Source: Promethearchaeota archaeon (GTDB lineage Archaea; Asgardarchaeota; Lokiarchaeia; Sigyniarchaeales; Promethearchaeaceae). From it: 32,000 bases of DNA. Each line of letters opens with the position of its first letter. Position 1 is the stretch's first letter. Shown piece by piece: positions 125 to 556 of the stretch. The stretch lies in assembly GCA_016933055.1 (NCBI GenBank), contig JAFGBS010000004.1, positions 270,001-302,000 on the forward strand, given 5' to 3'. Under the pieces are notes generated by a model. The model worked only from the letters and a program-made list of their open reading frames with translations, had not been told where the DNA came from and did not search any database. The position numbers and the translations under genes are program-made.

Positions 125-397
125 ATGCCAGAAAATTCTGTAGATCATGAGGAAAACAACGAAAATCTCGCAAGCTATAAGTACATCCTTGGTGAGATGG
201 GGATTCAAATTTTAATCGCAATATCGAGAGGTGCTAGCAATAAAGTTTCTATTCGACTTATCTCTGGGGTACCACTTGAATGTATCAATGGTCGCTTGCC
301 TGTATTATCCAATCTTAATCTAATTCGGCAAAACCAAGAGGAATATCATATAACTGACCGGGGAAATAGTTTTTTAATTACATTAGAAAATGAATAA
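125..397 (+). CDS. Small winged-helix protein, putative transcriptional regulator
   Basis: 90 aa. The ILIAI...helix...LSNLNLI...YHITDRGNSFL pattern is typical of archaeal wHTH C-termini (Y-x-I/L-T-x-x-G). Confidence 0.65.
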   Translation: MPENSVDHEENNENLASYKYILGEMGIQILIAISRGASNKVSIRLISGVPLECINGRLPVLSNLNLIRQNQEEYHITDRGNSFLITLENE

Positions 398-401
398 TAT
401 A

Positions 402-473
402 GTTCCAATGATGAAATCAAGACGAACTGAGGGTTGCCCTACTCCATGATGACAGCGATCCACGCTGAGGAAC
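402..473 (+). ncRNA. Box C/D 2'-O-methylation guide sRNA (double guide)
   Basis: C box ATGATGA 408-414; 12-nt guide 415-426; D' CTGA 427-430; hairpin linker; C' ATGATGA 446-452; 12-nt guide 453-464; D CTGA 465-468; terminal stem GTTCC (402-406)/GGAAC (469-473). Confidence 0.9.
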
Positions 474-556
474 CATATATTCAAATATTAATCCATAATT
501 TTTTTAGCACGAAACCCAACTCAAGTATATAGGACAAAAAAACGAGGAATAATAAA

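Follow-up and report, generated by a model that had tools for sequence, protein, structure and literature searches.

Between a winged-helix gene and a roadblock gene of a Promethearchaeota archaeon lies a short stretch of DNA that reads like a box C/D sRNA with two guides. In C/D sRNPs, fibrillarin methylates the 2′-OH of the nucleotide opposite the guide base that stands five positions upstream of the D or D′ box (the N+5 nucleotide). We asked whether the stretch is a conserved RNA of this kind, and which nucleotides its guides would address. The window, meaning the whole stretch of DNA analysed, is 32,000 nucleotides long (G000:C6:270001-302000). G000 is the genome that holds it, with an assembly of 3.76 Mb that is 91% complete.

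Anatomy of the dual-guide sRNA

The sRNA occupies 72 bases on the forward strand, window positions 402 to 473, as read directly from the DNA. An earlier note, made from the letters of the window, had claimed four consensus boxes (C, D′, C′ and D), a 5-bp terminal stem and two guides of 12 nt. Direct reading confirmed these elements: both guides are exactly 12 nt long and the terminal stem has five base pairs (Table 1). The stop codon of the upstream ORF lies at 395-397, so the stem begins at the fifth base past the stop, as had also been claimed. The complements of the two guides had been written correctly in that note, and the N+5 rule yields the U and the G that it named. The window sRNA is a genuine dual-guide box C/D sRNA, an ordinary kind of RNA. 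Its flanking genes encode a winged-helix protein (wHTH, HTH_45), a Roadblock/LC7 protein and a PD-(D/E)XK protein.

Table 1. Positions of the sRNA elements and of the adjoining gene in the window
Feature	Position	Strand	Remark
wHTH gene (Pfam HTH_45)	125-397	+	Pfam match; 3′ end adjoins the sRNA
Terminal stem, 5′ strand, GTTCC	402-406	+	pairs with 469-473
A407, single base between terminal stem and C box	407	+	
C box ATGATGA	408-414	+	consensus RUGAUGA
D′ guide AATCAAGACGAA, 12 nt	415-426	+	predicted pairing with helix 89 5′ strand, E. coli 2456-2467; N+5 = U2460
D′ box CTGA	427-430	+	consensus
Linker, 15 nt	431-445	+	
D′-C′ stem-loop: GGGU (431-434), loop UGCCCU (435-440), ACUC (441-444)	431-444	+	from comparison of homologues
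C′ box ATGATGA	446-452	+	consensus
D guide CAGCGATCCACG, 12 nt	453-464	+	putative derived P-loop guide, E. coli 2247-2258; N+5 = G2251
D box CTGA	465-468	+	consensus
Terminal stem, 3′ strand, GGAAC	469-473	+	pairs with 402-406

When both strands of the 3.76-Mb genome were scanned with a four-box regular expression allowing guides of 9-14 nt, the stretch at 402-473 was the sole match, and it was still the sole match in G000 when up to one mismatch per internal box was permitted. An Rfam scan of the stretch gave no family at the gathering score; sub-threshold matches ran end-to-end to the archaeal C/D families sR1 (E = 0.005), sR22 and sR14.

Other C/D candidates were also seen. Outside the window, G000 holds a second candidate box C/D sRNA of the same architecture at C6:59837-59906 (minus strand). 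Its 5-bp terminal stem ends one base before an ATGATGA C box, its D box is CTGA, and a 9-bp stem-loop stands between a GAGA-type D′ box and an ATGACTA C′ box. Both of its guides form eight pairs each with 23S CCUCGAUGUCGGCUCUUCUU near E. coli 2498-2515. Across the order, a perfect four-box candidate of any kind was found in 6 of the 151 genomes. Apart from the window sRNA, a single conserved perfect four-box C/D candidate was found in the order, at loci L021-L024 of genus g13 (genomes G036, G052, G021 and G042), with guides AACTAGACAAAT and TTAATAGTTACG and a 14-nt linker. In G021, its D′ guide pairs over nine contiguous positions with CUUGUCUAGU, in the region of helix 71. Its D guide resembles the helix 69 complement, judged against GAGUAACUAUAAC of G000, and has no match in the 23S fragment of G021. 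A permissive, G·U-inclusive genome scan for further candidates was set aside as too noisy, since 52 of its 62 candidates matched rRNA.

The sRNA family in Promethearchaeales

BLASTN of the element against 40 relatives returned no homologue, and the family became visible only through synteny and covariance models. In G001, a genome of the same genus whose flanking protein is 64% identical, the gene order is wHTH, a 159-nt spacer, roadblock and a 282-aa gene, and an orthologous element sits in the wHTH-roadblock spacer. The central 10 nt of both guides are identical between G001 and G000. The terminal stem is compensatory, with GTACC/GGTAT in G001 against GTTCC/GGAAC in G000, and the G001 boxes have been altered jointly, a C box ATGACGA standing with a D box CCGA.

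A covariance model built from these two sequences matched G002, G007 and, weakly, G026. Model R2 was then built from five sequences, the G000 copy among them. It recovered one copy in 133 of the 151 genomes of the order, nearly always as one match per genome; by family, the counts were 12 of 13 (f1), 1 of 1 (f2), 119 of 132 (f3) and 0 of 4 (f4). The window sRNA scores 87 bits over its full length with this model. Since the G000 copy helped to build R2, the independent support is the one-copy recovery across the order. A covariance-model search of this kind had been suggested in the earlier note as a check on conservation, and the family it revealed answers that check positively. An exact-pattern scan of species-representative genomes found hosts that are mostly Promethearchaeota MAGs, some of them labelled Hermod-, Odin- or Hodarchaeota, together with the named organisms Promethearchaeum syntrophicum MK-D1, Ca. 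Lokiarchaeum ossiferum and Ca. Harpocratesius repetitus. It also gave a few bacterial matches, which we judged to be chance. The sRNA of P. syntrophicum MK-D1 lies at about 252943-253014 of NZ_CP042905.2 and that of L. ossiferum at about 3324166-3324237 of CP104013.1; in both, the guide for the P-loop is perfect.

The genomic position of the sRNA is likewise conserved. A wHTH orthologue (43-73% identity, tblastn) adjoins the sRNA in G001, G002, G007, G010, G011, G009, G026 and G077, and in all eight of these further loci, drawn from two families, the sRNA adjoins the 3′ end of the wHTH gene. The two lie on the same strand in f1 and are convergent in f3. The sRNA-HTH_45 linkage persists across the two families despite this inversion of the sRNA (L061, L063, L064, L234-L236, L066 and L087).

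In the otherwise diverged spacer, G000 and G001 also have in common a block, CATAATTTTTTTAGCACG, at window 496-520, which lies 22 nt past the sRNA. This block could be an oligo-T terminator of the sRNA, a promoter of the roadblock gene, or both.

By these comparisons the sRNA belongs to a single-copy family conserved across the order Promethearchaeales (Lokiarchaeia). The window copy is best classified as a derived member of a putative Asgard-wide family of P-loop/helix 89 guides. We call it a member because of its synteny and structure, which speak for descent, and not because of the sequence of its D guide.

Both helices of the sRNA are supported by covariation. In an alignment of 50 sequences (A4), which contains 44 distinct homologues, 94.9% of the cells in the two helices together are paired, and 11 of 11 pairs are altered on both sides. 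None of 500 shuffles did as well, and slid-partner controls were only 26-42% paired. In the terminal stem, two-sided changes affect 5 of 5 pairs across the 44 distinct homologues, as illustrated by GTACC/GGTAT (G001), GCCC/GGGC (G002) and GGGGC/GCCCC (G007). The stem between D′ and C′ has six model pairs, all altered on both sides, with 96.5% of cells paired. Its length varies by paired insertions and deletions, from 4 bp in G000 to 6 bp in G001, and its UGCCCU loop is conserved.

This second stem differs from the one first proposed for the linker. The hairpin AGGG-TTG-CCCT of the earlier note can form, but the homologues favour a GGGU/ACUC stem around UGCCCU; the GGG/CCC hairpin is a preference of single-sequence folding. 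Archaeal K-loop linkers usually measure 3-9 nt, and a 15-nt linker with its own stem exceeds that range. The stem begins immediately after D′ and stops one base before C′. It thereby mirrors the geometry of the terminal motif, so that the internal C′/D′ motif can form a true K-turn. In genera g4-g6, short linkers of the usual archaeal K-loop type take the place of the stem.

The boxes themselves vary in a way that follows K-turn geometry, in which position 5 of the C box and position 2 of the D box form a pyrimidine-pyrimidine pair beside the sheared G·A pairs. These two positions are U/U in 42 distinct rows of the alignment, C/C in two (G001 and G007) and mixed in none; a CCGA D box is found in the two homologues with an ATGACGA C box and in no others. 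The D′ box is more variable among homologues (TTGA, AAGA and AGA-type), and the C′ box is degenerate in many of them (ATGACG, ATGATT, ATGAAA).

Predicted guide targets in 23S rRNA

Which RNAs would the guides address? The 16S gene of G000 lies at C6:93939-95429. The 23S gene lies at C6:1-2702 on the minus strand, where the contig end truncates it; its continuation is at the end of contig C28. About 25 nt are missing between the two parts (E. coli ~2609-2636, from the 3′ strand of helix 73 to helix 94), and the 16S gene is unlinked to the 23S gene, 91 kb away on C6.

The search for complements in 16S, 23S and tRNAs that the earlier note had proposed gave no exact target. The exact 12-mer complements, GUGGAUCGC for the D guide and UCGUCUUGA for the D′ guide, occur genome-wide only as the antisense of the sRNA itself. 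Imperfect sites do exist in the genome's own 16S and 23S: nine contiguous pairs for the D′ guide, equalled by 33 of 300 shuffled guides, and 10 of 12 pairs for the D guide, equalled by 240 of 300. Genome-wide, sites with at least 11 pairs number 444 for D′ (335-629 for shuffled guides) and 105 for D (55-225 for shuffled guides), and the 42 predicted tRNAs of G000 gave nothing above chance. By complementarity alone, neither guide beats chance in the genome's own 16S and 23S. Support for guide-rRNA pairing comes instead from comparison across the family.

In 37 of the 44 distinct family members the D guide contains GTCGCCCCA, which is exactly complementary to the P-loop sequence UGGGGCGAC. When the D guides of G011, G005, G009 and G008 are compared with their own 23S, the P-loop comes out first. 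In G000 the corresponding 23S 12-mer is AGUGGGGCGCUG; alignment with K-12 rrlH places it at E. coli 2247-2258, with G2251 as its fifth nucleotide. Against this site the G000 guide forms nine Watson-Crick pairs, a U·G pair at G2252 and an A×G mismatch at G2253. The family register is kept, with C8 paired to G2251 and with four pairs on one side and five on the other. The core of the guide is GCGAUCCAC in place of GUCGCCCCA, and perfect complementarity to UGGGGCG is absent. G001 and G002 have the same core as G000, and G007 is intermediate, with a single mismatch, an A opposite G2252. All four genomes keep the family register with a G·U pair and/or a mismatch opposite G2252/G2253; a 23S sequence covering this region was not found in the assemblies of G001, G002 and G007. 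The predicted duplex energy is −16.4 kcal/mol in G000, against −18.5 to −19.7 kcal/mol in relatives. It stays similar because the 5′ end of the G000 guide has gained three new pairs with the 3′ strand of helix 80. Taken across the family, these comparisons point to the D guide being the P-loop guide, with G2251 in helix 80 of 23S rRNA as its predicted target.

Would the mispaired arm still direct methylation? The G·U pair lies directly 3′ of the target nucleotide and the A×G mismatch lies next to the G·U pair. Known C/D RNP behaviour gives reason to expect that mispairs near the target impair methylation, so these positions could reduce or abolish it. We lean slightly towards methylation of G2251 still being guided in G000.

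The strongest alternative is that the D arm has ceased to direct G2251 methylation in the clade of G000, G001, G002 and G007. It would then have become a pairing-only assembly chaperone, or would be under relaxed or different selection. Two non-Watson-Crick positions beside the target, where 37 of the 44 distinct homologues are perfect, would be expected under such a loss, and energy maintained through new pairs at the guide 5′ end fits selection for binding over selection for a regular helix. However, the core GCGAUCCAC is shared unchanged by three species from two genera, in which the guide positions around it differ, and C8-G2251 is retained together with the three pairs 5′ of it. A U opposite G2252 is also found in G039 and, by our own reading, in the RNA-seq-supported Sulfolobus Sac-sR110, and all four boxes have full consensus in G000. 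We therefore regard loss of methylation by this arm as unlikely, though it deserves to be kept in mind.

A related idea is that, in this clade, the universally needed P-loop guide has been deliberately detuned, its central C's replaced by U and A and terminal pairs added so that stability remained roughly constant. We hold this only tentatively and think it improbable. If true, it could reflect selection for a guide that lets go easily of the very G+C-rich P-loop in an organism living in the cold. It could equally mean that a methylation guide has been converted into a chaperone that serves only the folding of helix 80 and helix 89. Combined with a stem-closed C′/D′ K-turn, such detuning would be a step towards the behaviour of eukaryotic snoRNAs, with their extra pairing and non-methylating guides.

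The D′ guide has its best site in the genome's own rRNA at GUCGUCUUGGGU, the helix 89 segment given in Table 1. There it forms nine contiguous pairs (eight Watson-Crick and one G·U), with an A-U pair at N+5. The sequence of helix 89 differs between lineages, and the 5′ tetranucleotide of the D′ guide tracks the helix 89 of its own lineage: CCU with AGG in g4/g5, CCC with GGG in g6 and G014, ACUC with GAGU in g13, and ACUU in g15. The UU at 2462-2463 that is unique to G000 faces AA in the G000 guide. This guide reaches −12.4 kcal/mol with its own helix 89, compared with −5.3 to −7.1 kcal/mol with the helix 89 of other lineages. For G000, G014 and G021 the most stable duplex is the one with the helix 89 of the same genome; in g6 the own helix 89 shares first place, and in g4/g5 another helix 89 scores better. 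These data suggest that the D′ guide binds the 5′ strand of helix 89 and changes along with it from lineage to lineage.

Pairing need not mean methylation at this site. Many family members have 15-16 nt between the C box and D′, or a bulged D′ pairing, which makes conserved methylation of U2460 doubtful; the D′ arm may contribute no more than additional pairing. In G000, the spacing and box of the D′ arm are canonical, and we put methylation of U2460 in this genome at an even chance.

In G011 (Ca. Harpocratesius repetitus), the D′ guide of the family member was also seen to match UUUGUCAUGGGA at L030:2131-2142 in 12 of 12 positions (11 Watson-Crick pairs and one G·U). This site lies ~400 nt past the sarcin-ricin loop, apparently in the 23S 3′ trailer, and a near-repeat, UUUGUCACGGAA, follows 60 nt further on. 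It could be a pre-rRNA pairing site; we estimate the chance probability of the match at roughly 0.01.

Far less probable than loss of methylation is that the D guide now addresses a different RNA, one containing GUGGAUCGC, for example a tRNA or an RNA absent from the incomplete assembly, which also lacks the ~25 nt of 23S between C6 and C28. The best candidate would be the 5′ acceptor strand of a predicted tRNA-Leu(UAA) at C17:766947, where the guide forms nine contiguous pairs with positions 2-10 (−15.5 kcal/mol). Yet among 200 shuffled guides, 50 find a site of nine contiguous pairs in the tRNA set, and the guide of G007 lacks the tRNA-Leu(UAA) pairing while keeping the P-loop (−18.5 kcal/mol). 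The 9-nt core has eight genomic copies besides the antisense of the sRNA itself, and each is located within an ORF or on the strand opposite one. The part of 23S missing at the gap is expected to be the 3′ strand of helix 73, whose sequence, judged from the 5′ strand, should be like CCAAUGGCG, and the sequence of relatives at the gap is nothing like the target. We give retargeting very little credence.

Among individual sites, core matches at C6:392554, which is antisense to an ORF, and at C17:117472, an A+T-rich spacer without an RNA family, were dismissed as chance. Guide targets inside the 23S gap were rejected on the basis of the complementary 5′ strand and the relatives' sequence.

The targets named in the earlier note, the LSU motif CCCGUCUUGAAAC and the GGUGGAU region at the 5′ end of 23S, can be set aside almost entirely: the first resembles its site only loosely (the own region, UCCGUCUGGAAU, offers 9 of 12 pairs with a longest run of five and three mismatches, one of them beside the central run), no fitting site exists at the 23S 5′ end for the second, and the guides of the family track the P-loop and helix 89 rather than those regions.

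It is equally hard to believe that the stretch is a chance motif or a relic without expression. RNA data for it were not found: three metatranscriptome contig sets compared with the stretch gave no cover, and cover came from a DNA run alone, probably the source of the assembly. Its single-sequence fold is also unremarkable (z = −1.16). Against this stand an expectation, based on composition, of ~0.002 chance four-box matches per genome, zero matches to the relaxed four-box expression in three shuffled genomes, single-copy conservation across the order, helices that both change in a compensatory manner, and guide cores that stay invariant.

Proposed mechanism and relation to known guides

The explanation we favour, and consider probable, is that the window sRNA belongs to a conserved family whose D arm acts on G2251 of the P-loop and whose D′ arm acts on U2460 of helix 89. 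Beside the anatomy, conservation, covariation and complementarity described above, the protein genes of the RNP are present in G000: a Nop5-fibrillarin gene pair at C6:186940-188458 and L7Ae at C17:488519. We infer that the sRNA is expressed and assembles with these proteins. L7Ae would bind both K-turns, the C/D K-turn being closed by the terminal stem and the C′/D′ K-turn by its own short stem instead of a K-loop. Nop5 and fibrillarin would then join the L7Ae-bound sRNA, and each 12-nt guide would pair with rRNA, the D guide directing methylation to G2251 and the D′ guide to U2460.

The P-loop and helix 89 are both part of the peptidyl-transferase region of the ribosome. With two targets in this region ~210 nt apart, we propose that the sRNA may also hold the two segments together during assembly in a chaperone-like manner. 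In G000 and its closest relatives, the P-loop arm has drifted, two central C's being replaced by the A and U that face G2253 and G2252, and has gained three 5′ pairs that leave duplex stability similar.

Guides for the P-loop have been predicted in other archaea, and the window sRNA is of a known kind whose odd feature is the mispaired P-loop arm. Dennis et al. (2015, PMC4644070) predicted sRNA-guided methylation of alignment position G2520, equivalent to E. coli G2251, in three archaea, and chaperone roles have been proposed for dual guides that bind distant sites (PMC4644070). The equivalent Gm1950 of Haloarcula marismortui is attributed to aFib and an sRNA (PMC11542601). These published sRNAs share RNA class, RNP, target nucleotide and N+5 rule with the window sRNA, and like it are dual guides for elements of the peptidyl-transferase centre (PMC4644070, PMC11542601). 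They come from Crenarchaeota and Euryarchaeota, whereas the window sRNA is from an Asgard archaeon and has a mispaired P-loop arm and a stem-closed C′/D′ motif. Our literature search for C/D sRNAs, or for such a guide family, in Asgard archaea found no publication.

Sac-sR110 of Sulfolobus acidocaldarius (PMC4644070 supplement) may be a close parallel. It is given there as NP/NP, with no predicted target (PMC4644070). As we read it, its first guide, CGCCGCTCCAGT, suits the universal P-loop, forming a U·G pair at G2252 as in G000, and its second guide, CAACGCGACGAG, resembles the helix 89 guide (complement CUCGUCGCG) with the same U at N+5. The guide order is swapped relative to the window sRNA, the P-loop arm standing at D′, and the linker is short and without a stem. 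Read against the universal P-loop rather than the Sulfolobus 23S, Sac-sR110 would be a P-loop/helix 89 guide.

In eukaryotes, C/D snoRNAs address the G2251 equivalent, with the same target nucleotide and mechanism as the window sRNA. In many snoRNAs the C′/D′ motif is closed by a stem and both protein sites can be true K-turns, as in the window sRNA. The snoRNAs are longer, however, and use Snu13, Nop56 and Nop58, and sequence homology with the window sRNA is not demonstrable beyond the part that the target forces. The snoRNA-guided equivalents are Gm2619 in yeast, Gm4196 in human and Gm2620 in Arabidopsis (PMC11542601). In E. coli, Gm2251 is made by RlmB, a stand-alone SPOUT methyltransferase (PMC11542601), which modifies the same nucleotide by protein-only recognition without a guide RNA.

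The earlier note had supposed that an Asgard guide for sites methylated in eukaryotes would bear on the origin of snoRNAs. One part of this stands, in that snoRNPs ribose-methylate G2251 in eukaryotes (PMC11542601). The nucleotide is, however, also methylated in bacteria and in other archaea, so the finding has little specific bearing on snoRNA origins. With a universal target and similar guides in Crenarchaeota, the sRNA by itself is no evidence on that question.

For the biology of these archaea, the finding means that Loki-type Asgard archaea, which apparently have very few C/D sRNAs, retain a dedicated guide for a P-loop nucleotide that is methylated in all three domains. The fixed genomic position of the sRNA yields a reliable model for annotating a gene that has gone unannotated. 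The cultured P. syntrophicum MK-D1 and L. ossiferum offer a testable prediction, Gm2251 and possibly Um2460. The mispaired arm of the G000 clade offers a small natural experiment on the tolerance of C/D RNPs for irregular guide-target pairing.
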